A stretch of 12,290 nt of DNA. It comes from a virus (Duplodnaviria; Heunggongvirae; Uroviricota; Caudoviricetes). The DNA lies in IMG/VR virus record IMGVR_UViG_2585427748_000007, positions 1 through 12,290 of that record; one strand, written 5' to 3'. Below, in pieces: positions 1 through 12,290 of the stretch; the stretch's first letter is position 1; the number at the start of each line of letters is the position of its first letter. The notes below the pieces were generated by a model that worked only from the letters and a program-made list of their open reading frames with translations, did not search any database and was not told the DNA's origin. The position numbers and the translations under genes are program-made.

Positions 1-218
1 ATATTGTCCAGGTCGCGACGACGCTTATCCGGTGGCTCTGCAATCACCTTTATCGCCAGCCTTCCGGACAGGCTTAATTTCAGCCGCTGCTGGCGAACAA
101 TAAGCGCCACAGCCCGGCGATAACGCTTTCCCTCCTCCGAGATAAAATATGTGCTGCCACGGCGTCGCCAGTAAGTGTTCACCGTCGGCGGGTAAGGTAA
201 AACCAAATCTATGAGCAT
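1..218 (-). CDS. rusA: RusA-like Holliday junction resolvase, N-terminal 72 codons; gene runs off the window edge
   Basis: Minus-strand frame absent from the ORF track because it has no in-window stop. ATG at 218..216 follows AAGAGG. Translation MLIDLVLPYPPTVNTYWRRRGSTYFISEEGKRYRRAVALIVRQQ...AEPPDKRRRDLDN shows the RusA hallmarks (LP.PPS.N.Y and PD.RRRDLDN). It starts 13 nt after the DUF968 stop. Confidence 0.7.
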   Translation of the reverse strand, partial: MLIDLVLPYPPTVNTYWRRRGSTYFISEEGKRYRRAVALIVRQQRLKLSLSGRLAIKVIAEPPDKRRRDLDN

Positions 219-230
219 CAGTCACCTCTT

Positions 231-1277
231 TTACCCAAGCACGCCAGTTGCAAAGGCGTGATCAAGAAAACGAAAAATTAAATCAACCTGAGAACCATGC
301 TTTTCTTCGAACGCCAGCGGATCCGCATGAAGCTCGTTGTGATGCTCCCGACACAGCGGTAGCGTGAAAATATCGTGAGATTTTGTCCCCATTCCGCCCT
401 GACCATGACCAATCAGGTGATGGGGATCGTCGGCTGGCTTACCACAACACGCACACGGCTGTGTCTTTACCCAGCGCGTATATTTCTCATTTACCCAACG
501 GCGACGTTTAGGTCGCTTCATTAAAGATTCCGGAGACTCCGGATCAACAGCAATGCTGACCACCGTCTTTTCCTGTGGCGGGGTTTGCTGGTGGGCGTGA
601 GGCAGCGGCGCAAGATTTTTTGTGCGCTGCTTCAGTATGCTGGTGGCGGTCTGCTCTCCCGGTACGATGTCGCTTTCACGGTACATTGAGCGGATTTTTT
701 CCGCACGCAACCCCAGCGAACGACGTAATACCGCTTCCGGTAGCGCGTCCGCCACCTGATTGCGGACCGCCCACCAGGATAATTCAGCCAGCGATAATTC
801 CCGCTCCTGCGTGCCATTCATTGCATGGCGTATGACGTCAATCATCCATGCTGACAGGTTTTGGTGAGCAAGTTGCCCGAGTGATTCGGAAGTCTGGTCA
901 CGCAGCTGGTTGTCGCAGTGCCAGCACAACACCATCGCGCCGGTACCGTAACGATGTATGACGGTTTCACTGTGATGGTAGTCACCATGAGGCCACTGGC
1001 AGGATTTGACATGACGCAGGAGCCAGTCAGACAGTGCACCAGCACCGCCTGCAGCGCGAATCACCCGTTCGTTGCTGAAAAATGACAGTAATGATTTATC
1101 TTCCGCCAGCGGCTGGCGAACGGCAGGAACGACTCCAGACGGCAGCCCGCGCATGCTTTTCGGTTCAGGCTCCACCAGCACTCGAGGGTTATGAAATACC
1201 TGCATGGATTCACGGCCCGGCTTAAGGACCACCAGCCCGAACTCCGGTACCAGAACAGGTCGAAGTAATACCCGCAC
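231..1277 (-). CDS. DUF968 family phage protein (YdfU-like, HNH-like Cys/His-rich C-terminus)
   Basis: 348-codon ORF. Start codon is GTG (1277..1275) with GGAGG 4 nt upstream. C-terminal segment QPCACCGKPADDPHHLIGHGQGG...LCREHHNELH resembles DUF968 proteins of lambdoid nin regions. Family assignment is from memory. Confidence 0.6.
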   Translation of the reverse strand: MRVLLRPVLVPEFGLVVLKPGRESMQVFHNPRVLVEPEPKSMRGLPSGVVPAVRQPLAEDKSLLSFFSNERVIRAAGGAGALSDWLLRHVKSCQWPHGDYHHSETVIHRYGTGAMVLCWHCDNQLRDQTSESLGQLAHQNLSAWMIDVIRHAMNGTQERELSLAELSWWAVRNQVADALPEAVLRRSLGLRAEKIRSMYRESDIVPGEQTATSILKQRTKNLAPLPHAHQQTPPQEKTVVSIAVDPESPESLMKRPKRRRWVNEKYTRWVKTQPCACCGKPADDPHHLIGHGQGGMGTKSHDIFTLPLCREHHNELHADPLAFEEKHGSQVDLIFRFLDHAFATGVLG

Positions 1278-1278
1278 G

Positions 1279-1557
1279 TTACCTCCAGATGCGTTGCTGA
1301 TATGTGCGGGACGGACGCGGTGGGCGTTCGGAATAAGGGAGTCTGACGTAGATTATCCAGTGACGATAATCGAGGGTGAGGGCTTTCTTAACCTCGTATC
1401 CGCGCCTGCGGTAACACTGAATCAGCCATTCAGCCTGTTCTTCGGTGCAGGGGTCGTGCTGATACCAGTCAGATTTGAATGCATGAGAACGCCGCCCGTG
1501 CCTGCTGGCAAAGACGGCTGAATTATCAGAATTGTATGGTTTGGTATCGTGCGCCAT
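1279..1557 (-). CDS. hypothetical phage protein (92 aa)
   Basis: ORF-track start at 1638 is TTG and would overlap the upstream terminator hairpin. First ATG is at 1557..1555 (MAHDTKPYNS...). Its TAA stop lies 1 nt before the DUF968 GTG start. Ribosome-binding site is weak. Confidence 0.45.
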   Translation of the reverse strand: MAHDTKPYNSDNSAVFASRHGRRSHAFKSDWYQHDPCTEEQAEWLIQCYRRRGYEVKKALTLDYRHWIIYVRLPYSERPPRPSRTYQQRIWR

Positions 1558-1625
1558 CTGTTTTCTCTGCTGGCGCAGCAGGTGCCAGTTGTTCAGGCTG
1601 GCGTGTGGATTGTAAACCAGAATGC

Positions 1626-1655
1626 CAGGAAAAAACAAAACCCGCGAAGCGGGTT
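1626..1655 (-). terminator. rho-independent terminator after the restriction endonuclease gene
   Basis: Stem AACCCGC (1639-1645), loop GAA, stem GCGGGTT (1649-1655). On the minus strand the hairpin is followed by TTGTTTTTTCC. It sits 73 nt downstream of the endonuclease stop. Confidence 0.5.
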
Positions 1656-1727
1656 AGTAAAAATGTACTGAAGTCAATGACGTGCCATCACAGTTAAAAT
1701 ATGACAGACTCTATTTACGTAGAGATG

Positions 1728-2606
1728 TCAGACTGCAAGATCCAAGGGAAGATCAGAAATATCCTTTAATCTTTTACCATTAACCATCACGGAAAGCATG
1801 TCAGCTGCATCGCTGAGCCCCAGTATTTCAACTGCTGATATAAGTTCATAAAGCGCAAAATGATACACGCAATCTATATCACCAGTACCAAGAGCAATAG
1901 ACGCCAGACGACTTGGAGTAGGCTCAGCAGTAACAACCATTACATGAGGGAGATTTCCCTTACGGTTGCGAATAAGATTTAATGCCTCAGAACGAGCATT
2001 CTGGGCCCGGTCGCTTCTTATTGTCCATTTGCAGGAAATACTTGCGTGTAATATTGGTTTCCCACCATTCGAACTCCTGAGAGCTGACATGCGGGTAACA
2101 GAATCATCCACCAGTAATTCAGGACTGTTGATAACTTGATCACATTCAGGTTCTCTTTCAACAATAATATCTGGTGAAATCGTATAATCACTCCCCAGTG
2201 CAGCAGCTAGCTGAGGATTACTTTTTGCAGCACTATCCAATGCTATAAGATGGGCATATTGTTCATATTTAGCTATCTCTAATCTGTTTCTACCAGAAAC
2301 CTGATGTACATTCCATTTTCCAGGGCGTAAGTGGCTGAGTTTAAAAAAGGTTTTTTCTATAAACTCTGCGCAGATACTCTCAAACTGATTACCAGATGTT
2401 TGCCCTGCAACACGTTCACCAATCGTTTCAGCCTGCAAGAAGCGAGCAATTTCTCTTGCTATAGCTTTACTGTTTTTGTTACTGCTATCTGCGTTACTAA
2501 CAACTCCGGCAGTATTAATTGTGAGCGTATTCAGTAACAATTGGGCATGAAACTCCTTTCTGGCTTCAGCAAAACCAACTATGCTGTCAACCAAATCTCC
2601 ATTCAT
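1728..2606 (-). CDS. Type II restriction endonuclease, NgoMIV/Cfr10I/Bse634I-like (292 aa)
   Basis: Start chosen at ATG 2606..2604 (MNGDLVDS...), 13 nt after the methyltransferase stop, preceded by AAGGAAATCCAGAA. Contains ISPDIIVERE and SCKWTIRSDRAQNARSE, i.e. a PD...S-x-K...E arrangement with K-to-E spacing of 14, as I recall for the Cfr10I/NgoMIV active site. Family call is from motif memory, not a search. Confidence 0.6.
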   Translation of the reverse strand: MNGDLVDSIVGFAEARKEFHAQLLLNTLTINTAGVVSNADSSNKNSKAIAREIARFLQAETIGERVAGQTSGNQFESICAEFIEKTFFKLSHLRPGKWNVHQVSGRNRLEIAKYEQYAHLIALDSAAKSNPQLAAALGSDYTISPDIIVEREPECDQVINSPELLVDDSVTRMSALRSSNGGKPILHASISCKWTIRSDRAQNARSEALNLIRNRKGNLPHVMVVTAEPTPSRLASIALGTGDIDCVYHFALYELISAVEILGLSDAADMLSVMVNGKRLKDISDLPLDLAV

Positions 2607-2619
2607 TTCTGGATTTCCT

Positions 2620-3744
2620 TCAGGCTGCTTGACTATTCTTACTGATGTTATTCTTATACCGTCCCTGCAAAACTCCATACACATATTGTGCGATTTTTGC
2701 CGCAAATAGCGGTGGAACAGCATTCCCGATCTGCTTTGCAATCTCAGTTTTTGAACCGGTAAAAATGAAATTATCAGGAAAAGACATTAATCTCGCTGCC
2801 TCACGATGAGTTATTGGCCGATCCTCTTCCGGATGTAAATATCGCCCTTTCTCCGGTTTGAAAAACTCAGTACGAATCGTTACTGAAGGTCTGTCCCACC
2901 ACAGACGTCCAAACAAATCGGTCCCTCCAGATTTCTTTTTTAGCCAGCACGCCGGGGTTATATCAGGTCTTTTTTTCTGTAAATCGAAACGGTTACCTCC
3001 TGGTGGAACCGCTTTATATCGCTCCAGAGAAACAGGTGTGGGATTACGCCCAAAATGTAAGTTCAGCGGAGGAAGTTCATTACGAATATCAGTTCCAACA
3101 GGAGCAGGTAAGTCACCAATTGCATCACGCGTACAGACCCATTCAGGCAAAGCGACATCCTTATCAGGGGAACGATGCGTTGGTGCTGGCGGGAACGCCG
3201 GAATACTATGCACATCGAAGAGTTCTCGTTTGATACCGATTGCTATCGTTCGTTTTCTTGTCTGAGGTACTCCATAGTCAGCAGTATTCAACACCATTGG
3301 ATTAAGCAGAATAAAGCCCATGGATTTCGCTCTAAACGTAATGTCCGCAAACTCATCGCTTATCAGCAATCCGGGGACATTTTCCATGACGAACATACAA
3401 GCCCTTGAACGCTCAATGACATCCATATAAGGCTCCCACAATGCTCTTCGGTGATCACCATAACGATTCTTATTTAATAAACTGAATCCCTGACACGGGG
3501 GGCCACCTATGACCACATCAGCCTCAGGAACAGTATTGCTGGATGCCCACTCCTCAATATTTGCCTGAACTCCATGCAAACCAAAATTGGCATTGTAGGT
3601 ATTTATAGCTGCAGCATTATTATCAATAGCAAGGATACTTTCAAAGTAGTCAGACATCTCTCCATGAAGAAAACCATAAGATAATCCACCTGCCCCACAA
3701 AAGAGGTCTATCACTCTGAATTTATTTAATTCTTTCATCCGCAT
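2620..3744 (-). CDS. DNA (cytosine-5)-methyltransferase (374 aa)
   Basis: Canonical C5-MTase motifs in order: I FCGAGGLSYGF, IV GGPPCQGFS, VI FVMENVPGL, VIII GVPQTRKRTIAIG, X QIGNAVPP. ATG at 3744 with GAGG 7 nt upstream. Confidence 0.85.
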   Translation of the reverse strand: MRMKELNKFRVIDLFCGAGGLSYGFLHGEMSDYFESILAIDNNAAAINTYNANFGLHGVQANIEEWASSNTVPEADVVIGGPPCQGFSLLNKNRYGDHRRALWEPYMDVIERSRACMFVMENVPGLLISDEFADITFRAKSMGFILLNPMVLNTADYGVPQTRKRTIAIGIKRELFDVHSIPAFPPAPTHRSPDKDVALPEWVCTRDAIGDLPAPVGTDIRNELPPLNLHFGRNPTPVSLERYKAVPPGGNRFDLQKKRPDITPACWLKKKSGGTDLFGRLWWDRPSVTIRTEFFKPEKGRYLHPEEDRPITHREAARLMSFPDNFIFTGSKTEIAKQIGNAVPPLFAAKIAQYVYGVLQGRYKNNISKNSQAA

Positions 3745-3922
3745 CCATATGCCTCAGATTAATGTTGAGCGTCTTACAGGACGCGTAATGTTAACTGGGG
3801 CTTTCTCTATCTGCCTTTTGGTGTTCATGCCTGAGGCAGACAGCCTCAGGCACCCGCAGCAATTCTACTTAACTCACGTCACCTCGCCAATATGAAATCA
3901 ATCAGAAAGGTGATCCATAAAA

Positions 3923-4609
3923 TCACTCCTTCTCTTCTTTTCCGTAGTGGAGTTGGCCAATTTTGATAAGAGGGCGTCCCTGAGATTTGCGGTGTAGATT
4001 GGTATCGCGCAGAGAATACACACAGCCACAATATTCCTGCTGATAGAATTTTTCGCGCTTGCTGATTTCAATCATACGGGACGAGCCGCCCTGCTTGCGC
4101 CAGTTATAATCCCAGTACACCATACCCGGATAATGCGCAACAGCTCGCCGCCCACACTCGTTAACCTGCTGCATATTTTTCCAGCGTGAAATGCCCAGTG
4201 AACTGCTGATCACACTGAAACCATTTTCAGCAGCGTACAACGCTGTCCGCTCAAAACGCATGTCAAAACACATGGTACAACGGATCCCCCTCTCAGGCTC
4301 CCATTCCATTCCTTTGGCACGTTCAAACCAGTTGTCGGTGTCGTAATCAGCATCGATAAACGGCACGCCGTGTTGTTCAGCAAAGCGAATATTTTCATCC
4401 TTACGAATTAAATACTCTTTCTGAGGATGAATGTTCGGGTTGTAGAAAAAGATGGTGTAGTCGATTCCCGAGGCCTGAAGCGCCTCCATCACTTCACCGG
4501 AACATGGAGCACAGCAAGAGTGCAGTAGTAGTTTGTTTGCCCCGTTTGGGAGTTCCAATTTAGGCCGTTTGAAATCAGCAATAGTCATAAATATTTTTAT
4601 TGGGGTCAT
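3923..4609 (-). CDS. QueH-like (DUF208) putative epoxyqueuosine reductase-family protein (228 aa)
   Basis: N-terminal [13 protein letters not shown] plus downstream CTMC and C-terminal YCGCVYS Cys motifs, matching my recollection of the DUF208/QueH Fe-S signature. Start could be ATG 4609 or ATG 4588; neither has a strong ribosome-binding site. Confidence 0.55.
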
Positions 4610-4762
4610 GAAAATAGCACAGAGTGTAGCATCAGAGCAGGGCTATCGGGAATATATGTCTAAATCTGGTAATATCTGGTTTTGACGCAAAGCGGACAAC
4701 CACGCTGGCTCTACCCTGCGCCATGAAAATGTCAATTCACATCTGAACTAATGCTCTTTAAT

Positions 4763-4766
4763 CTAG
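4763..4766. repeat. IS5 target-site duplication CTAG (left copy)
   Basis: CTAG directly abuts the IS5 terminal inverted repeat. The same tetranucleotide flanks the other end at 5963-5966. IS5 makes 4-bp duplications at YTAR targets. Confidence 0.8.
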
Positions 4767-5962
<1,196 letters not shown>

Positions 5963-5966
5963 CTAG
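5963..5966. repeat. IS5 target-site duplication CTAG (right copy); also supplies the TAG stop of the adjacent gene
   Basis: CTAG immediately outside the IS5 inverted repeat. On the minus strand, 5965..5963 reads TAG, the stop codon of the 131-aa gene. Confidence 0.8.
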
Positions 5967-6358
5967 TAACGTCTAAAATACCTAACATTTCCTTGATAAA
6001 ATGTCAGTACACGCTGCATAGCTTCGCTCTTCCGGCACTCGCGACAGATTATATTCAGGCGCCTGTCGTAGCGGCGTATTTCTCCGTCTGGTAACTTTCG
6101 AATCAGTGTCGGGTCAGCAGCCTTCTCCGGTGTCTTACGCCATACGCGATACGCCTGCTCTGATGGAAATACCCCGCAATCACAGAGCCAGACATCACCA
6201 CTGGCCGCAAGCGCACCAGATAAACGACGAATAGCGGTCTTACTGACACCCGTTTTATCTGCCAGTTGTCGAAAAGTTTCTCGTCCGCTCAGGCGCACGA
6301 ATTCCACAATGCGCGCCTTCACTTCTTCCCGCTCTTCTGGTGTAAATACTTTTGCCAT
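5963..6358 (-). CDS. hypothetical phage protein with HTH-like segment and Cys cluster (131 aa)
   Basis: ORF-track start at 6373 is TTG. ATG at 6358..6356 (MAKVFTPEE...) follows GGAGG with a 5-nt spacer. Contains TFRQLADKTGVSKTAIRRL (HTH-like) and CDC...CRECR. Stop codon lies in the IS5 duplication. Confidence 0.5.
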   Translation of the reverse strand: MAKVFTPEEREEVKARIVEFVRLSGRETFRQLADKTGVSKTAIRRLSGALAASGDVWLCDCGVFPSEQAYRVWRKTPEKAADPTLIRKLPDGEIRRYDRRLNIICRECRKSEAMQRVLTFYQGNVRYFRRY

Positions 6359-6373
6359 AAGCGCCTCCGGCAA

Positions 6374-7144
6374 TCACTTTTCCGACACAATACGACCGGA
6401 TGAATCGACAATCTGTCGAACAATATCCCGGTGCTTGTACAGCTCCCGCAGCGCGGCGCAGACTCGCTCCCACTTCTGAACCTGACCTTTTGCCCGGCGC
6501 AGCTCGCGGTTAGCCACATGCAGCGATGGTAAAATCAGACCATCCGGATGTTTTCTGGTGAACGACGGCTGTGACTGCACTGTGACCGCCACACTTTCAG
6601 TTTTTATTTCTTCCTGTGTTTCCGCTTCCCGGACAGGTAACGCAATACCTGCTGGCTGAGGAATGGCTTTACCATCCGTTTCCGCTACGGATGCAGCTTC
6701 CGGCTCTGCCGGTAAATCAGCGCCCGGTATGCAGTAACGAAATTTACCGTTCTGATTTACGCGTGCCAGGCGCCCCGTTGCTGTTACGACCGCCAACGTG
6801 GAAGCAACCTTGCGAATGCTAACACCGAACTTATCCGCCAGTTCCTCACACGTTTTAGCCCCATCCTGACAGATAAACTCAATCATCATGTCCGCGGTAA
6901 CTTTTTGTTCGACCTCCCCGGTCAGCATATCCTGTGCTTCAGATTTTACTGGCCGCTCTTCGGTTACCCGGGATTCACCTTCGCCAGCCAGAAACCAGGT
7001 GTGACCAGTTTTATCAACGACGCCATTTCTTTTGAGTTCCCACAGCTCGTTGACAGCCTCTTCACGACTGATTCCAAGGCGAGCTGCCACCACATGTGAA
7101 GAGGCTTTTTTCAGTGCTTTCAGTGCGTCAAATACGGTTTCCAT
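6374..7144 (-). CDS. hypothetical phage protein with two winged-helix-like segments (256 aa)
   Basis: ORF-track start at 7162 is TTG. ATG at 7144..7142 (METVFDALK...) follows GGAGGA. Its TGA stop is 15 nt upstream of the ATG of the 131-aa gene. Function not recognised. Confidence 0.5.
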   Translation of the reverse strand: METVFDALKALKKASSHVVAARLGISREEAVNELWELKRNGVVDKTGHTWFLAGEGESRVTEERPVKSEAQDMLTGEVEQKVTADMMIEFICQDGAKTCEELADKFGVSIRKVASTLAVVTATGRLARVNQNGKFRYCIPGADLPAEPEAASVAETDGKAIPQPAGIALPVREAETQEEIKTESVAVTVQSQPSFTRKHPDGLILPSLHVANRELRRAKGQVQKWERVCAALRELYKHRDIVRQIVDSSGRIVSEK

Positions 7145-7177
7145 TAATATTTCCTCCGACAAAATCGTTTCTCAGAT

Positions 7178-7840
7178 TCAAATAAAACCAGCTGCCTTCC
7201 GGCGTTCGTATTCCTGTTTCAGCCGTTCAATTGGCGTTGGCCCTTGCGGGTGTTTCGCCCCTTCCAGTTGTCGTCGCACTGGCGGAACACTCATCCCGTT
7301 ACCAACATGCTTTGCCCATTTCGTCAGTTGCCGTTCCGCAAGTCGTTTTAACTCACCCTGCGTCATCTGGCGCTCAATCCCTCTGGTACGCATTTCGAGG
7401 CAGATGTGGTACAGCACAGGCTGTGGCCACGGGTATTTATCACTCCCGTCGTATCGCCAGGATTCATTGCGCCAGCGCCGGTACTCTTCCATCACTGCAT
7501 CCACCGTAAGACCAAATGGATTTGCCCCACTCTCCGAAATCAGTGCAACAAACTCAGCCAGGTCCGGGGGCCACGTTTCACCCGCCCGGCAGCGGTCCAT
7601 GCACTGACGGCAGACCAGCCGGATTTGCTGTTCAGTCATCGCGCCAATCTGGGCAATCCAGAGCTTCGAAGGTGCGGCCCCGTTCTTCTGTGTCCAGCGG
7701 TTCGAATACACCTCCCCCATAAGCTCCCACAGCTTCCAGGCCGTTTCCGTTGCTGATAAATCCGTTGTCACGTTCCCACTGTTCGCGTGCTGCCCGGATT
7801 TCCTGAACTGCCCGTGATGCCGTGCCACCTGATGCTGCAT
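7178..7840 (-). CDS. replication protein P-like (helicase loader), lambda P family
   Basis: Recalled similarity to lambda P: GETWPPDLAEFVAL vs PFLPSPGQFVAW, YPWPQPVLYHICLEMR vs YPWKSNAHYWLVTNLYQNMR, ELKRLAERQL vs ELRRKAADEL. ATG 7840 has AAGGGGG upstream. The N-terminal 209 nt overlap the O-like ORF out of frame; an alternative start ATG 7639 forms ATGACTGA with the O-like stop. Confidence 0.6.
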   Translation of the reverse strand: MQHQVARHHGQFRKSGQHANSGNVTTDLSATETAWKLWELMGEVYSNRWTQKNGAAPSKLWIAQIGAMTEQQIRLVCRQCMDRCRAGETWPPDLAEFVALISESGANPFGLTVDAVMEEYRRWRNESWRYDGSDKYPWPQPVLYHICLEMRTRGIERQMTQGELKRLAERQLTKWAKHVGNGMSVPPVRRQLEGAKHPQGPTPIERLKQEYERRKAAGFI

Positions 7841-8648
7841 GGCTTACCCCCTTGCTGACTGGTTTTACCTGTGCCCTGACGTGCTGCACGTGGCGGGCAA
7901 ATTTCTGCTCCCACTGAACCTGCGTGAAAACCTTCCCCTCCGCCATCCAGTAATCCCGGAATGCGGCAAGCTCTGCAGGTGTAAATTCCGGCTCAGGCAG
8001 AGCCATACCCCACACTGCTGCCCGTTGTCGAAAATCCGACGACGGCTGCCAGACAGTAGTCATCGAAAATTTCCCGATCGGTTCGCTCAGGCCGTCCAGG
8101 TATTCAGGTTCGGCTGTCTGCAACGGCGCACCATGCGACTCACCGGTTGGAGCACTCTCGCGCATGCGCGCGTTATGTGTGGGGTTTAATTCTGTATCTG
8201 TATCTTTATCTGTCGTGACTTGTCGTGACATGTGCGTGACATTTCGTGACGCGCCGTGACAATCGCCATTTTGTTCCCGCTTTCTTTCCCTCTCACGCTG
8301 CGCCCTCTTGCGCTCTGCCGGAGATTTTGCGGTTTGCGAAATATTGCCGTTGTCCTCTTTAAGCACCTGGCGTTTTTCCCATCCAGTGATTAAATCACCA
8401 TCAAGTACCCGCCCCTGCATCGTCTGCAAAATTGAATCAATTACCTCTTCTGTCACGTCGAGCGCACTTGCCAAATCTTCTGTCGTGACATCAATGTGAC
8501 CTCGCGTGACATTTCGTGACGCGCTCACCAGGAGGTGGATATACACTGCCATCACTGTTGCAATTGGCTGCCCTGACACCCTGGCAATTGTTCGCCACTT
8601 AGGGTCATTTGGCATGTCATGCCATAATCTGAGCCAGGCGTTAGCCAT
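7632..8648 (-). CDS. phage replication initiator (O-like) containing internal iterons
   Basis: 338 codons from ATG 8648..8646 (MANAWLRL...), preceded by AAGAGGTGA. ORF-track start at 8654 is GTG. Sits in the O position between ydaT and the P-like gene and contains two CGTGAC repeat clusters, as lambda O contains ori. Not sequence-similar to lambda O as far as I can recall. Confidence 0.6.
   Translation of the reverse strand: MANAWLRLWHDMPNDPKWRTIARVSGQPIATVMAVYIHLLVSASRNVTRGHIDVTTEDLASALDVTEEVIDSILQTMQGRVLDGDLITGWEKRQVLKEDNGNISQTAKSPAERKRAQRERERKREQNGDCHGASRNVTHMSRQVTTDKDTDTELNPTHNARMRESAPTGESHGAPLQTAEPEYLDGLSEPIGKFSMTTVWQPSSDFRQRAAVWGMALPEPEFTPAELAAFRDYWMAEGKVFTQVQWEQKFARHVQHVRAQVKPVSKGVSHAASGGTASRAVQEIRAAREQWERDNGFISNGNGLEAVGAYGGGVFEPLDTEERGRTFEALDCPDWRDD
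8191..8260. repeat. iteron cluster 1: five CGTGAC copies at 10-11 bp spacing, preceded by TGTATC/TTTATC repeats
   Basis: CGTGAC at 8214, 8224, 8235, 8245 and 8255 (start positions), helical periodicity. Lies inside the O-like coding region. Confidence 0.55.
8453..8524. repeat. iteron cluster 2: CGTGAC/TGTGAC copies at 10-11 bp spacing plus one inverted copy
   Basis: Copies start at 8484, 8495, 8505 and 8515; inverted GTCACG at 8453. The 21-bp block GCGTGACATTTCGTGACGCGC (8504-8524) is an exact copy of 8234-8254. Confidence 0.55.
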
Positions 8649-8719
8649 ACTCACCTCTTCTGATACCGAATCTTTTTACTCACGAGTTGCCGGAAGCGAT
8701 TCGATATGGCTATTGTCAG

Positions 8720-9145
8720 TCAATGTACTGCCACAGCATTTCCTGCCGGGCCACCACGGTTCATCTGATTGAAACCGGCGATTGCCACTGCGACAAAATC
8801 ATCAGCGTCTCTCACCAGTCGCTCCCGCGTCTCCACCAGCTCCCGAAAATAAGCTGAACTGTGGCTGCGCATTCTGGCCACCAGCAAAGGTGGCATTGCC
8901 TTTTCGATCGCTGGTAACAACGCCTGAATTTTTTCAACTGCATCAGGGGTGTCTTTCTCTACCCAGCGGAAAATTTTCTGGGTATTACGGGCCAGGGCTT
9001 CCGGATGGCTGTCGTCGTACAGTTCCGGGAACGTCATCCCCAGTTCGAAATAAGTCCGGGCTATTTCAGCTGCTGGAACTTTCTCACCGTCTGGATACGC
9101 CCAGGCATTCATTGCCATGCGGATGTGTTCATGCTTGATTTTCAT
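8720..9145 (-). CDS. ydaT: YdaT-like regulator (reported CII functional analogue), 141 aa
   Basis: ATG at 9145..9143 (MKIKHEHIRMAMNAW...), preceded by GGGGGGA. The ORF-track 5' extension is rejected. Position immediately after the Cro-like gene and the MKIKHEHI N-terminus fit the YdaT family as I recall it. Confidence 0.6.
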   Translation of the reverse strand: MKIKHEHIRMAMNAWAYPDGEKVPAAEIARTYFELGMTFPELYDDSHPEALARNTQKIFRWVEKDTPDAVEKIQALLPAIEKAMPPLLVARMRSHSSAYFRELVETRERLVRDADDFVAVAIAGFNQMNRGGPAGNAVAVH

Positions 9146-9404
9146 GAATCCCCCCCGCCTCTGGTTGTGTGTTAGCCTGATACTCGACAGGTAAGCCGTC
9201 GGTTGGGTTGGGATAAGTACTGCCATCAATCTCGTGCGGAGTTACTATCCAGCCTGTTGCTTCGCACCAGCGTAAAATTTTTTTCCCCGTAAGTTTCGCC
9301 CGTCCGGTAATGACATGGCTTACCATCCCTTGGGTTACCCCAACAATTTCAGCAAAATGCTTCTGAGTTATACCGGAATGATGCAAATATTCTCCAAGAT
9401 TCAT
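9129..9404 (-). CDS. ydaS: YdaS-like Cro-type HTH regulator (91 aa)
   Basis: ATG at 9404 with GAGGTGA upstream. HTH-like segment ITQKHFAEIVGVTQGMVSHV. Divergent from paaR2 and overlaps the ydaT start by 17 nt. Confidence 0.6.
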   Translation of the reverse strand: MNLGEYLHHSGITQKHFAEIVGVTQGMVSHVITGRAKLTGKKILRWCEATGWIVTPHEIDGSTYPNPTDGLPVEYQANTQPEAGGIHENQA

Positions 9405-9511
9405 TGTTCACCTCATGTGATGTCATCACGATCACTAATAGCATTGTTATTTTTAAAAGTAAATAGCATCACTATTTCAAAGAGATTAATAATCTTATTA
9501 GAATTGAAGGT
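9405..9511. promoter_or_regulatory. divergent promoter/operator region between ydaS and paaR2 (OR-like)
   Basis: Perfect palindrome GTGATG-T-CATCAC (9417-9429). Two imperfect 7-1-7 sites built on AATAGCA (9437-9451 and 9462-9476), centres 25 bp apart. Putative rightward promoter: -35 TTCAAA (9476-9481), 17-bp spacer, -10 TAGAAT (9499-9504), start about 9511, which would give a near-leaderless paaR2 mRNA. Confidence 0.45.
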
Positions 9512-10012
9512 ATGAAAAGAAAATCCCTGTCAGAGATCGACCTGCAAGCCGCCCAGAGACTGAAAGAAATCTGGACGGCGAAAAAAAATCAACTAGGGTT
9601 AACCCAAGAGCGTGCGGCAGAAATTCTGGGATTTTCGACACAGGGAGCTGTAAGCCATTATCTAAATGGTCAGACACCTTTAAATCTTGAGGCTGTTATC
9701 AAGTTCGCAGGGTTGCTGCAAGTTCCTCCCGAGTCAATCAGACCAGATATGGCCGAGTTGTTACAAATTGTAAGGATGTATCCCCAAGAATCTGGGGAGG
9801 ACAATGTTGTCACTATATCTGCAGATATGGAACAATCGGAAAACGAACTTCCGTTTAATATAGACCCCATGGAGCGGGATTTGCTCCAGACGTTCAGGGC
9901 TTTCCCCAAAGAAGATAAAGAGAAAATGCTTAAGGAAATGAAGGAGAAAAAAGAATCAATTGAAGAAATCGTTGCGCGATGGCTAGCTGCGCAAAAGGGT
10001 CGTCGCGCCTAA
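9512..10012 (+). CDS. paaR2: PaaR2-like XRE-family HTH regulator (CI-like position), 166 aa
   Basis: HTH-like segment LTQERAAEILGFSTQGAVSHYLNG. First gene of a three-gene operon with a 63-aa antitoxin and a ParE toxin, matching the paaR2-paaA2-parE2 organisation reported for E. coli O157 prophages. The GAAGG upstream is only 1 nt from the ATG. Confidence 0.65.
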   Translation: MKRKSLSEIDLQAAQRLKEIWTAKKNQLGLTQERAAEILGFSTQGAVSHYLNGQTPLNLEAVIKFAGLLQVPPESIRPDMAELLQIVRMYPQESGEDNVVTISADMEQSENELPFNIDPMERDLLQTFRAFPKEDKEKMLKEMKEKKESIEEIVARWLAAQKGRRA

Positions 10013-10029
10013 TCTGAGGAGGTAAAAAC

Positions 10030-10221
10030 ATGAGTACAGCCCTTTCCCCGATAATTTCTGAATTTGAAACAGTCGAACAAGAAAACAGCTATAACGAATG
10101 GTTGCGAACCAAAGTGGCAGCAAGCCTCTCAGATCCCCGTCCTGCAATTCCACATGACGAAGTAATGGCTGAAATGGAAAACCTTATTGCTCAATTAGCT
10201 GCAACGAACAGGAGTGAGTAA
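10030..10221 (+). CDS. paaA2: PaaA2-like antitoxin (63 aa)
   Basis: Strong GAGGAGG 7 nt upstream. Small acidic protein. Its TAA stop overlaps the toxin ATG in TAATG. Confidence 0.65.
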   Translation: MSTALSPIISEFETVEQENSYNEWLRTKVAASLSDPRPAIPHDEVMAEMENLIAQLAATNRSE

Positions 10222-10511
10222 TGCTGCCCATTTTATGGCTACCTTCTGCACGTGATGATTTACGTCAGATCGTAGCCTATATTGCTAAGGAAAACCCTCC
10301 CGCTGCACGTAGACTAAAAATACGCATTGAAACATCAGTTTTGTCACTTACTGAACACCCTTATCTGTACCCACCGAGCGAAAGAGTTCCAAGTCTTCGT
10401 GAGATAGTGACTCATCCTAACTACATAATACTTTACCGAGTAACAGCATCTAACATCGAGATCGTAAATGTAGTTCACTCACGAAGACAGTATCCAAACA
10501 AAACCTGTTAA
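10221..10511 (+). CDS. parE2: ParE/RelE-superfamily toxin (ParE2-like), 96 aa
   Basis: Typical ParE size, start translationally coupled to the antitoxin stop, followed by a strong terminator. N-terminus MLPILWLPSARDDLRQIVAYIAKENPPAARRL is ParE-like. Confidence 0.7.
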   Translation: MLPILWLPSARDDLRQIVAYIAKENPPAARRLKIRIETSVLSLTEHPYLYPPSERVPSLREIVTHPNYIILYRVTASNIEIVNVVHSRRQYPNKTC

Positions 10512-10525
10512 TCCTTCCTGTCAAC

Positions 10526-10549
10526 AACCACCTTCGGGTGGTTTTTTTC
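10526..10549 (+). terminator. rho-independent terminator of the paaR2-paaA2-parE2 operon
   Basis: Stem AACCACC, loop TTCG, stem GGTGGTT, then TTTTTT (10544-10549), 15 nt after the parE2 stop. Confidence 0.7.
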
Positions 10550-10559
10550 TTGCCACGAT

Positions 10560-10598
10560 AATAGCACTGCTATTTACATAATTAAATAGTAGTGGTAT
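10560..10598. promoter_or_regulatory. OL-like operator pair upstream of the ydfA-dicB operon
   Basis: Perfect 7-1-7 palindrome AATAGCA-C-TGCTATT (10560-10574) and imperfect AATAGTA-G-TGGTATT (10584-10598), centres 24 bp apart. Same half-site as the sites at 9437-9476. Confidence 0.4.
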
Positions 10599-10780
10599 TG
10601 TTCATTCATCAACCCACCCCGCCCCACAGAACGCCAGGCAATACTTCGAGTTACCCGGCAGTGGTCAGGGGTTAAGTAGCCAGCCCGAGGCGTATGAACA
10701 TGACGGCGGGAACACTTTATATAACAGCGCAGCAGTTTTTTAGTTCCGCTACCCCGGCGTTAAGGGGAAATGAGGTCAGC

Positions 10781-10936
10781 ATGGATACTATCGATCTTGG
10801 CAACAATGAATCTCTGGTGTACGGCGTGTTTCCCAACCAGGACGGCACATTCACCGCGATGACGTATACCAAAAGCAAAACGTTTAAAACCGAAAATGGT
10901 GCCCGTCGCTGGCTGGAAAGAAACTCAGGTGAGTGA
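10781..10936 (+). CDS. ydfA: YdfA-like small protein (51 aa)
   Basis: ATG 10781 with GAGGT upstream (MDTIDLGNNESLVYGVFPNQDG...). First gene of the ydfA-ydfB-ydfC-dicF-dicB arrangement known from Qin. The ORF-track N-terminal extension from 10694 is rejected. Confidence 0.7.
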   Translation: MDTIDLGNNESLVYGVFPNQDGTFTAMTYTKSKTFKTENGARRWLERNSGE

Positions 10937-10937
10937 T

Positions 10938-11066
10938 ATGGATTTCGACACAATCATGGAAAAGGCTTACGAAGAATACTTCGAAGGCCTTGCCGAAGGC
11001 GAAGAAGCTCTCAGCTTCAGTGAGTTTAAACAGGCGCTTTCCAGCTCGGCAAAATCTAACGGCTGA
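10938..11066 (+). CDS. ydfB: YdfB-like small protein (42 aa)
   Basis: Not in the ORF track (under 60 aa). ATG 10938 is 1 nt after the ydfA TGA. Translation MDFDTIMEKAYEEYFEGLAEGEEALSFSEFKQALSSSAKSNG. Confidence 0.65.
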   Translation: MDFDTIMEKAYEEYFEGLAEGEEALSFSEFKQALSSSAKSNG

Positions 11067-11095
11067 TAAGCGAAACAGCACCGCGAGGAATCAGT

Positions 11096-11314
11096 ATGCA
11101 GAAACGAGAACCCGTCATCATCGCGCCAGACTATACCGATGATGAACTTTATGAGTGGATGCACCAGAAAATTAATGCAGCGCAGGATCTGAAATGGGCC
11201 AATGAAGCCAGGGCTAAGCAGGCTGAAAATCTGTCCGCTCTGGAGCAGGATATCACTAATCTGGAAAAAGCAGCGGCATTAAGCATTGCCAGAATGATTA
11301 CATACCCGCGTTAA
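11096..11314 (+). CDS. ydfC: YdfC-like protein (72 aa)
   Basis: ATG 11096 with GAGGAA upstream (MQKREPVIIAPDYTDDELYEWMHQKINAAQ...). Size and position match ydfC of the dicB operon. Confidence 0.7.
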   Translation: MQKREPVIIAPDYTDDELYEWMHQKINAAQDLKWANEARAKQAENLSALEQDITNLEKAAALSIARMITYPR

Positions 11315-11336
11315 TAGCTAACCAACGAGGCTAATA

Positions 11337-11711
11337 ATGGAATTTAAAGATTTACCAATGCAATTCCAGGAAATGGCAGCGAATATAGTTCGTTCCCAAC
11401 TGGCGACTCTTGACCTGAGTACCGTAGAAAAAGAAACCATCGACAATATATCCGGTAACGTACGCCGAGCCTTTATCGGGCTGTACGAAGAGAAGCAGCT
11501 CTCTGATAACCAGGATTTACATGAAAAATACTTTCTGGAATTAATGGACATCATTAATAAAGGATTTGGCTTGTTAATGAAAAAGAAAGGGATTCGAATA
11601 GCTCCCCTTGAAAATCATTTTACAGCAAGCAGTATTAATTCCTGTGATTTAAAGCATCACACATCCGATGGGAAAGTTGAATCAAACAACAAAATATCGA
11701 TTAATCATTAA
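11337..11711 (+). CDS. hypothetical protein (124 aa), AT-rich, inserted between ydfC and dicF
   Basis: ATG 11337 with GAGG 7 nt upstream. Noticeably more AT-rich than its neighbours. No recognisable motifs, acidic, no obvious hydrophobic segments. Confidence 0.5.
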   Translation: MEFKDLPMQFQEMAANIVRSQLATLDLSTVEKETIDNISGNVRRAFIGLYEEKQLSDNQDLHEKYFLELMDIINKGFGLLMKKKGIRIAPLENHFTASSINSCDLKHHTSDGKVESNNKISINH

Positions 11712-12016
11712 TTTATTCACAGGTGAGGTAGAGTGCGTGCGCCGGACACGGATAAGAATCCGGCACTGACAGTTTACTGAAAAGGATATATCCCTGAAAA
11801 GTCAGGGCATAACACGAAAGCGCCCGGAGAAGTTAGTCTCTCTGTATAGGTCGTCGTTAAATTTAATTCGATCGTGCGCTTCCGGTTGTGGCAATCCGCG
11901 AAATGGCGCGGCGGTAAGTATGGCGGGGGTATTTCTTCCCCCCCCGAGGACACCGGGTTGTCAGGTTGACCATACGCTTAAGTGACAACCCCGCTGCAAC
12001 GCCCTCTGTTATCAAT

Positions 12017-12075
12017 TTTCTGGTGACGTTTGGCGGTATCAGTTTTACTCCGTGACTGCTCTGCCGCCCTTTTTA
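12017..12075 (+). ncRNA. dicF: DicF small RNA (ftsZ-targeting sRNA), approximate ends
   Basis: Sequence TTTCTGGTGACGTTTGGCGGTATCAGTTTTACTCCGTGACTGCTCTGCCGCCCTTTTT matches the DicF sequence as I recall it, ending in a GC-rich stem and T-run, and it sits just upstream of dicB. Exact 5' and 3' ends are not determined here. Confidence 0.65.
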
Positions 12076-12243
12076 AAGTGAATTTTGTGATGTGGTGAAT
12101 GCGGCTGAGCGCACGCGGAACAGTTAAAACCAAAAACAGTGTTATGGGTGGATTCTCTGTATCCGGCGTTAATTGTTAACTGGTTAACGTCACCTGGAGG
12201 CACCAGGCACCGCATCACAAAATTCATTGTTGAGGACGCGATA

Positions 12244-12290
12244 ATGGAAACGTTATTACCAAACGTTAATACGTCTGAAGGTTGTTTTGA
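12244..12290 (+). CDS. dicB: DicB cell-division inhibitor, N-terminal fragment (runs off window)
   Basis: ATG 12244 with GAGGA 7 nt upstream. METLLPNVNTSEGCF matches the DicB N-terminus as recalled (K-12 has K at position 2). Confidence 0.7.
   Translation, partial: METLLPNVNTSEGCF

Follow-up and report, generated by a model that had tools for sequence, protein, structure and literature searches.

Epoxyqueuosine (oQ) is made by QueA at position 34 of tRNA-Asp, -Asn, -His and -Tyr and is reduced to queuosine (Q) by QueG, which employs cobalamin and Fe-S clusters. Escherichia coli is unable to make cobalamin de novo and must scavenge it, and its tRNA reportedly retains oQ when cobamide is absent. 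A non-orthologous, cobalamin-independent replacement for QueG is said to be provided by the DUF208, or QueH, family, and the QueH structure deposited as PDB 7LC5 is reported to hold a [4Fe-4S] cluster with an adjacent iron. Here we examine a gene, queH, carried by a stretch of viral DNA of 12,290 nucleotides (nt), positions 1 to 12,290 of the Caudoviricetes record IMGVR_UViG_2585427748_000007 of IMG/VR (hereafter, the window). The product of its open reading frame (ORF), at 3923-4609, is almost certainly a member of the QueH family, as it has every family trait that can be judged from sequence and modelled structure. We further consider it probable, at roughly 0.7, that the gene encodes a working Fe-S, cobalamin-independent tRNA epoxyqueuosine(34) reductase, its activity and the benefit of B12 independence both being predicted.

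QueG (YjeS) and QueH are predicted to act on the same substrate in the same reaction, the conversion of oQ34-tRNA to Q34-tRNA. They are, however, unrelated proteins, and while the cobalamin-dependent QueG is a core function of the species, with queG present in 5426 of 5426 complete E. coli genomes, queH is accessory (995 of the 5426, or about 18%, nearly always as a single chromosomal copy). Because queG is universal, queH supplements it rather than standing in for it; the description of QueH as a non-orthologous extra copy beside QueG, in a prediction made earlier from the DNA sequence (the original prediction), thus holds. Queuosine-related chemistry is likewise phage-borne in the 7-deazaguanine clusters, in which DpdA is found with FolE, QueC, QueD and QueE. 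Those clusters, in contrast, target DNA, through the DpdA transglycosylase and preQ0 synthesis genes, and no DpdA/TGT or preQ0 synthesis gene is named among the window ORFs of at least 50 amino acids (aa) or in the surrounding 19 kb of a matching genome, that of strain JKHS016; this check covered the names of those ORFs, a Pfam scan of eight window proteins and the annotated 19 kb, the distal part of the prophage falling outside its scope. No homologues of QueA, QueG or QueH were reported among the viruses analysed in a 2019 survey of phage 7-deazaguanine systems (PMC6884629).

Family membership and fold of the prophage QueH

The assignment to QueH/DUF208, first proposed from Cys motifs, is borne out by a profile search, in which PF02677 matches the 3923-4609 ORF along positions 1-174 of its 175 (E = 1.1e-65; 221.5 bits, against a cut-off of 23.5); no other Pfam family matched the ORF. 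The three motifs on which the proposal was built are located in the protein, HSCCAPC at residues 30-36, CTMC at 111-114 and YCGCVYS at 193-199 (numbering of the 228-aa form), and with them the CCxPC, CxxC and CxC clusters that provide the metal ligands. An exhaustive search returned 4774 relatives at E ≤ 0.001 and 2525 at E ≤ 1e-10, and 61 diverse, full-length representatives were drawn from it for alignment. All seven Cys residues of the family (C32, C33, C36, C111, C114, C194 and C196) are kept in the prophage protein, each residue being that of 55 to 61 of the 61 representatives.

The one family match in a search of the PDB is QueH from Thermotoga maritima (7LC5, E = 8e-22; also 7LC7 and 9DEU), which belongs to the same Pfam family, has the same fold and is about 31% identical to the prophage protein. 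C9, C10, C87, C90, C169 and C171 of the T. maritima enzyme align with C32, C33, C111, C114, C194 and C196, respectively. Where the prophage protein has Cys36, however, T. maritima has Asp13 (CCAPC versus CCAPD), and because Cys is the family norm at that position (57 of the 61 representatives), it is the T. maritima enzyme that is unusual and the prophage QueH that is typical. The prophage protein is also extended at its C terminus by a tail of about 25 aa, which is absent from the T. maritima crystal construct. An AlphaFold2 model of the prophage QueH (pLDDT 76.7, pTM 0.78) superposes with the crystal fold: the best five PDB matches found by Foldseek are all T. maritima QueH, including the C9S and D13N mutants and a queuosine complex, with E values of 1.4e-11 to 3.5e-10 and target-normalised TM-scores of 0.77-0.82, and the matches that come next are PP-loop ATPases, at E of about 1e-4. 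Comparison with a characterised QueH, which had been put forward as a check, therefore agrees with the assignment in ligands and in fold. Moreover, the chromosomal QueH proteins of the Enterobacterales are of equal length and have all the motifs in common with the prophage protein.

The gene is already named by automated RefSeq annotation, as epoxyqueuosine reductase QueH (WP_000150294.1, with the start placed at the ATG at 4588), so that its carriage by phage is the less familiar part. Despite this name, the product has no NCBIfam match, and the name must for that reason stem from another type of PGAP rule. Among phage protein families, PHROGs v4 phrog_3217 matches QueH residues 41-228 with E = 1.9e-138 and is labelled "unknown function". 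Its profile, beginning at residue 41, misses the CCAPC motif, which suggests that truncated gene calls are found among its members. A full-text literature search found no paper specific to the prophage QueH.

Prophage carriage, selection and origin

The element that harbours queH is an E. coli prophage of the lambdoid, Qin-like type, as indicated by the DicF small RNA at 12018-12069 on the + strand (Rfam RF00039, 76.7 bits, E = 7e-16) together with dicB and ydfABC, which lie beyond it in JKHS016. The order of genes on the - strand is lambdoid: O/P-like replication genes, DUF1627, DUF977, IS5, queH, a restriction-modification (R-M) pair, a small hypothetical gene and DUF968, which in JKHS016 is followed by RusA and the antiterminator Q. 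Copies of queH that are 100% identical occur in E. coli genomes. The E. coli prophage setting first proposed is thus correct, as is the placing of queH between IS5, upstream, and a C5-methyltransferase gene, downstream. The defective Qin of E. coli K-12 retains dicF/dicB and hokD and appears to be devoid of the segment from the replication genes to queH.

We examined 87 queH loci, from 7 annotated genomes or phages and 80 IMG/VR contigs. All of them have a full-length ORF, which is preceded by DUF977 in 86. Both Rac-like prophages (with kilR and ydaE/F) and Qin-like prophages (with dicB and ydfABC) carry the gene, which keeps a fixed position across at least these two prophage types. Furthermore, the isolated Escherichia phage HannyBb (PP925841.1, 33011-33697) has a 95% identical copy in the same position, annotated there as hypothetical. 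Any match to QueH was found in just 25 of 50,697 phage records, with HannyBb as the sole isolated phage that matches closely; the inspection excluded records labelled as Staphylococcus or Listeria "phage" and short faecal contigs. "Acinetobacter phage MD-2021a" was considered as a second phage carrier and rejected. In this 328-kb record (locus L175, CAKLQH020000001.1, 128939-139595), the QueH, labelled "putative prophage protein", is surrounded by soxR, cynX, tadA and a LysR regulator; the region does not look like phage DNA, and because chromosomal genes flank its QueH the record may be mislabelled. These findings correct the record left by the 2019 survey, in that QueH is a common component of lambdoid prophages and is also carried by an isolated phage, and both phrog_3217 and the HannyBb gene could now be annotated as QueH.

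Prophage queH is under strong purifying selection. The ratio of nonsynonymous to synonymous divergence (dN/dS) between diverged alleles is 0.06-0.09, at dS values of up to 0.46, and amino-acid replacements are few, being concentrated in codons 1-7 of the long frame and in the C-terminal tail. The prophage protein is 80-92% identical to the QueH of many Enterobacterales, and at the loci inspected the latter is encoded amid non-phage genes: in Erwinia in the order purL-queH-glrK, in Providencia near tmcA and purC, in Photorhabdus beside benE, and in Scandinavium and Enterobacter among metabolic genes. The E. coli and E. albertii copies, in contrast, lie inside lambdoid prophages, and E. albertii accounts for the only one of 80 species-level loci with neighbours of the prophage type.

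In the sequence of events that we favour, a lambdoid phage lineage would have captured queH from an Enterobacterales chromosome, and the gene would then have been conserved as an accessory gene of Qin/Rac-like prophages, seated between the replication module (O/P, DUF1627 and DUF977) and hokD, DUF968, RusA and Q. Its product would convert oQ34 to Q34 on host tRNA-Asp, -Asn, -His and -Tyr. As QueG needs cobalamin, and E. coli is without de novo cobalamin synthesis, the phage copy would free the last step of queuosine formation from the supply of B12. Completion of queuosine by the lysogen without B12 was one of two roles suggested in the original prediction; it is plausible, and it fits the purifying selection, the 80-92% identity to chromosomal proteins and the presence of the right fold.

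Several points weigh against this reading. The case for this QueH copy rests on computation, with its activity predicted, and a scan of the NCBIfam models gave no match to the queH product. As an Fe-S enzyme, QueH may perform poorly in air. We know of no physiological difference between decoding with oQ34 and with Q34, so that the selective benefit is one that we infer. Moreover, no convincing promoter or Shine-Dalgarno sequence precedes either of the candidate starts (4588 and 4609), and the IS5 of the window, 178 nt 5' of the ATG at 4588, may stop early-right transcripts from reading through into queH.

Should the enzyme prove active, roughly a fifth of E. coli strains could complete queuosine without vitamin B12; the queH-bearing strains include O157:H7, O111 and O103 isolates. 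A phage would then confer a difference in the modification state of four tRNAs, and whenever B12 is scarce about 18% of E. coli would differ from the rest, with Q in place of oQ, owing purely to a prophage gene. The chemistry is ordinary and the protein a routine member of its family; the strain-level consequence, and the tight conservation of the gene by a temperate phage, raise small questions rather than new biology.

The hok/sok slot and alternative roles for QueH

The boundaries of the R-M cassette that adjoins queH were defined by alignment to the hokD locus of strain CE10 (window ~1660-3750 aligned against L004 5100-6080). Downstream of queH the window is near-identical to the CE10 hok/sok region up to ...AATCTGAGGC (~3751), and again from the terminator TAACCCGCTTCGCGGGTTTTGTTTTTT (~1660). 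The intervening R-M stretch, of about 2.1 kb, has a GC content of 41-44%, as against 52-56% in the flanks. The alignment thus indicates that a low-GC cassette precisely replaced the mok/hokD reading frames, one addiction module having been swapped for another. The hok leader that was retained carries a perfect inverted repeat, GCCTGAGGC...GCCTCAGGC, and sok (Rfam RF01794) is matched at 3675-3855 on the - strand with 61 bits, slightly over the gathering score of 59. Since the ATG of the methyltransferase gene comes directly after this leader, transcription of the R-M genes, and perhaps their control by antisense RNA, may now follow the pattern of hok.

The cassette is one of several occupants of the same slot. 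In the 74 IMG/VR loci surveyed, the distance from queH to the conserved gene that comes next takes discrete values: hok alone (PF01848; gap of 481-482 nt) is found in 34, the R-M pair (~2287 nt) in 19, hok with a 130-aa lipoprotein-like ORF (~1147 nt) in 8, and hok with RosmerTA (PADLOC RmrT/RmrA, RmrA with E = 6e-105; 2623 or 2344 nt) in 7; insertion sequence (IS) elements fill the slot in a few loci. A Kiwa KwaB-like gene with a partner occupies it in strain 7/2. The slot is bordered on one side by queH/hok and on the other by the small hypothetical gene that precedes DUF968, as can be seen in L068 (~6560-8300), L079, L005 (4153-5792) and others in L008-L087. It is a hotspot at which addiction and defence cargo is interchanged, and because its contents vary while queH stays, queH is a fixed neighbour of that cargo and not a partner.

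The second role suggested in the original prediction, in which QueH would work with the adjacent R-M module or on a DNA modification of the 7-deazaguanine type, has to be judged against this variability. In the window, queH does adjoin the C5-methyltransferase and the NgoMIV-type endonuclease genes on the same strand, and the R-M pair, where present in E. coli, is nearly always beside queH (57 of the 60 genomes, among 5426, that have the pair). The reverse does not hold, however: the junction of queH with the methyltransferase gene occurs in 57 of the 5426 genomes, that is, in 57 of the 995 that carry queH (~6%), so that about 94% of queH copies are without the R-M pair. The low-GC R-M cassette took the place of the hokD reading frame; at other loci the same slot is occupied by hok alone, RosmerTA, a Kiwa-like gene or IS elements, and HannyBb has queH without the R-M pair. 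QueH itself matched none of the PADLOC families, whereas the neighbouring methyltransferase and endonuclease matched the type II R-M models; a defence role of QueH, which we had considered, was rejected on that account. The DpdA/TGT and preQ0 synthesis genes of the phage DNA-modifying clusters are not named in the regions specified above, and QueH was not among the proteins of the viruses in the 2019 survey (PMC6884629). A conserved link between queH and a C5-methyltransferase gene in bacterial chromosomes was likewise entertained and dropped. The neighbours prove to be ordinary dcm-vsr, divergent from queH, in Pantoea and two Erwinia species (PRK10458, 848-860 bits; Vsr, TIGR00632; L102 2774-4183, L106 2870-4817 and L108), and because these three Erwiniaceae are only 3 of 80 species, we read the adjacency as coincidental. 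The original prediction was prepared to give up an R-M-linked role should the linkage not be conserved elsewhere; as it is not, we reject that role, which we find barely credible.

Other alternatives keep the chemistry, or discard the function, of QueH. The conversion of oQ to Q on tRNA might serve the phage in conflict or takeover, with delayed-early expression tuning the decoding of NAU/NAC codons in late genes or the response of Q34-tRNA to anticodon nucleases. The location of queH on the early-right strand, past the replication genes but ahead of the Q antiterminator and with no strong promoter of its own, would suit such a role, as would its place at the border of a hotspot of defence and addiction cargo and its carriage by HannyBb, a virion-forming phage. 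We nevertheless regard a benefit to the phage as unlikely: position is its sole basis, the findings would fit a benefit to the lysogen equally well, and the PADLOC families give it no support. Nor are we aware of evidence that oQ is distinguished from Q by any nuclease or in decoding. That QueH acts outright as a conflict weapon or shield, the switch from oQ34 to Q34 reprogramming the decoding of late genes or altering susceptibility to anticodon nucleases, would explain the fixed seat of queH beside the hokD/R-M/RosmerTA/Kiwa-like hotspot, and is, in our estimate, quite improbable. Alternatively, queH could be a passenger, inactive or no longer selected, in a host that already has queG; the lack of a clear ribosome-binding site and the "unknown function" label of its PHROGs family are in line with this idea. 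A passenger would not, however, be expected to show a dN/dS of 0.06-0.09 at dS of up to 0.46, nor to remain full-length in every locus examined, with all ligand residues retained and its position kept across Qin-like and Rac-like prophages, and we think it very improbable that queH is one. A B12-independent epoxyqueuosine reductase that acts on host tRNA is the reading that we prefer.

Start codon, expression signals and neighbouring features

The coordinates of queH and of the features around it are collected in the table. The true start of queH is probably the second ATG, at 4588, rather than the one at 4609, because in a diverged allele (L007) the frame is interrupted by a stop codon ahead of it, because the homologues are 214-222 aa long and because PGAP also places the start there.

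Table. Features at and around queH in the window (positions in nt; tilde, approximate)
Feature	Position	Strand	Details
queH, open frame	3923-4609	-	228 aa from upstream ATG at 4609
queH, likely coding sequence	3923-4588	-	221 aa from ATG at 4588
queH upstream region	4589-4766	-	IS5 end to likely start; includes 21 nt of open frame from ATG 4609
Conserved block CTCTGATGCTACAC	4623-4637	-	Contains candidate extended -10 TGcTACACT (4631-4623), 34 nt before ATG 4588
IS5	4767-5962	-	Transposase 4914-5930; NCBIfam IS5 NF033581, E = 1.9e-109
DUF977/Ren-like gene	5963-6373	-	PF06163, E = 1.8e-38; phrog_142
Retained hok/sok leader	~3751-3922	-	Directly 3' of queH; near-identical to CE10
Type II R-M cassette	1728-3738	-	C5-methyltransferase and NgoMIV-family endonuclease
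C5-methyltransferase	2620-3738	-	Open frame to 3744; PF00145, E = 4e-54; PADLOC MTase_II
NgoMIV-family endonuclease	1728-2606	-	Open frame to 2741, start probably 2606; PF09015, E = 1e-126; PADLOC REase_II
hok terminator	~1634-1660	-	Retained beyond cassette

Few expression signals were detected upstream of queH. Rfam gave no match in the upstream region, and hence no preQ1 or cobalamin riboswitch, and around queH its matches at E ≤ 5 were confined to sok and one chance match. The predicted RNA fold of the upstream region is not above that of shuffled sequences (z = -0.94), and no terminator-like site was found there on the - strand. A consensus scan for promoters returned 4 sites, with 3.3 expected from shuffling, and none of them lies 5' of queH on its own strand; the putative promoter region that had been placed on each side of the gene was thus not recovered. 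The block CTCTGATGCTACAC is kept in 7 of 7 aligned alleles, including L007, though the L007 sequence farther upstream is unrelated. The TGcTACACT within it, which was not picked up by the consensus scan, is a plausible extended -10 element to which a promoter role can be assigned tentatively; the block could equally mark a recombination or module boundary. In any event, the seat of queH on the early-right strand, past the replication genes and ahead of Q, leads us to expect delayed-early transcription of the gene at the least. Expression in the lysogen from a weak promoter of its own would point to the lysogen as beneficiary, whereas expression confined to the early-right operon in lytic growth would point to the phage.

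IS5 is bounded by terminal inverted repeats and by a CTAG target duplication (4763-4766 and 5963-5966). Its insertion site overlaps the stop codon of DUF977, and the duplication keeps the stop. The insertion does not belong to the ancestral gene order: most queH loci are without IS5, and there DUF977 directly adjoins queH; among the loci examined, this insertion is common only to JKHS016 and the IMG/VR contig L031, and in L086 an IS5 is found near queH in the opposite orientation. In the window, the element separates queH and everything downstream, Q included, from the early promoter; it may be polar on the rest of the operon and may cripple this copy of the prophage.

On the + strand, at 10030-10511, a pair of genes encoding proteins of 63 aa and 96 aa lies beside a repressor-like gene, and the 96-aa member is annotated in the matching genome as a toxin of the RelE/ParE family; the pair is a further addiction module, in the immunity region.

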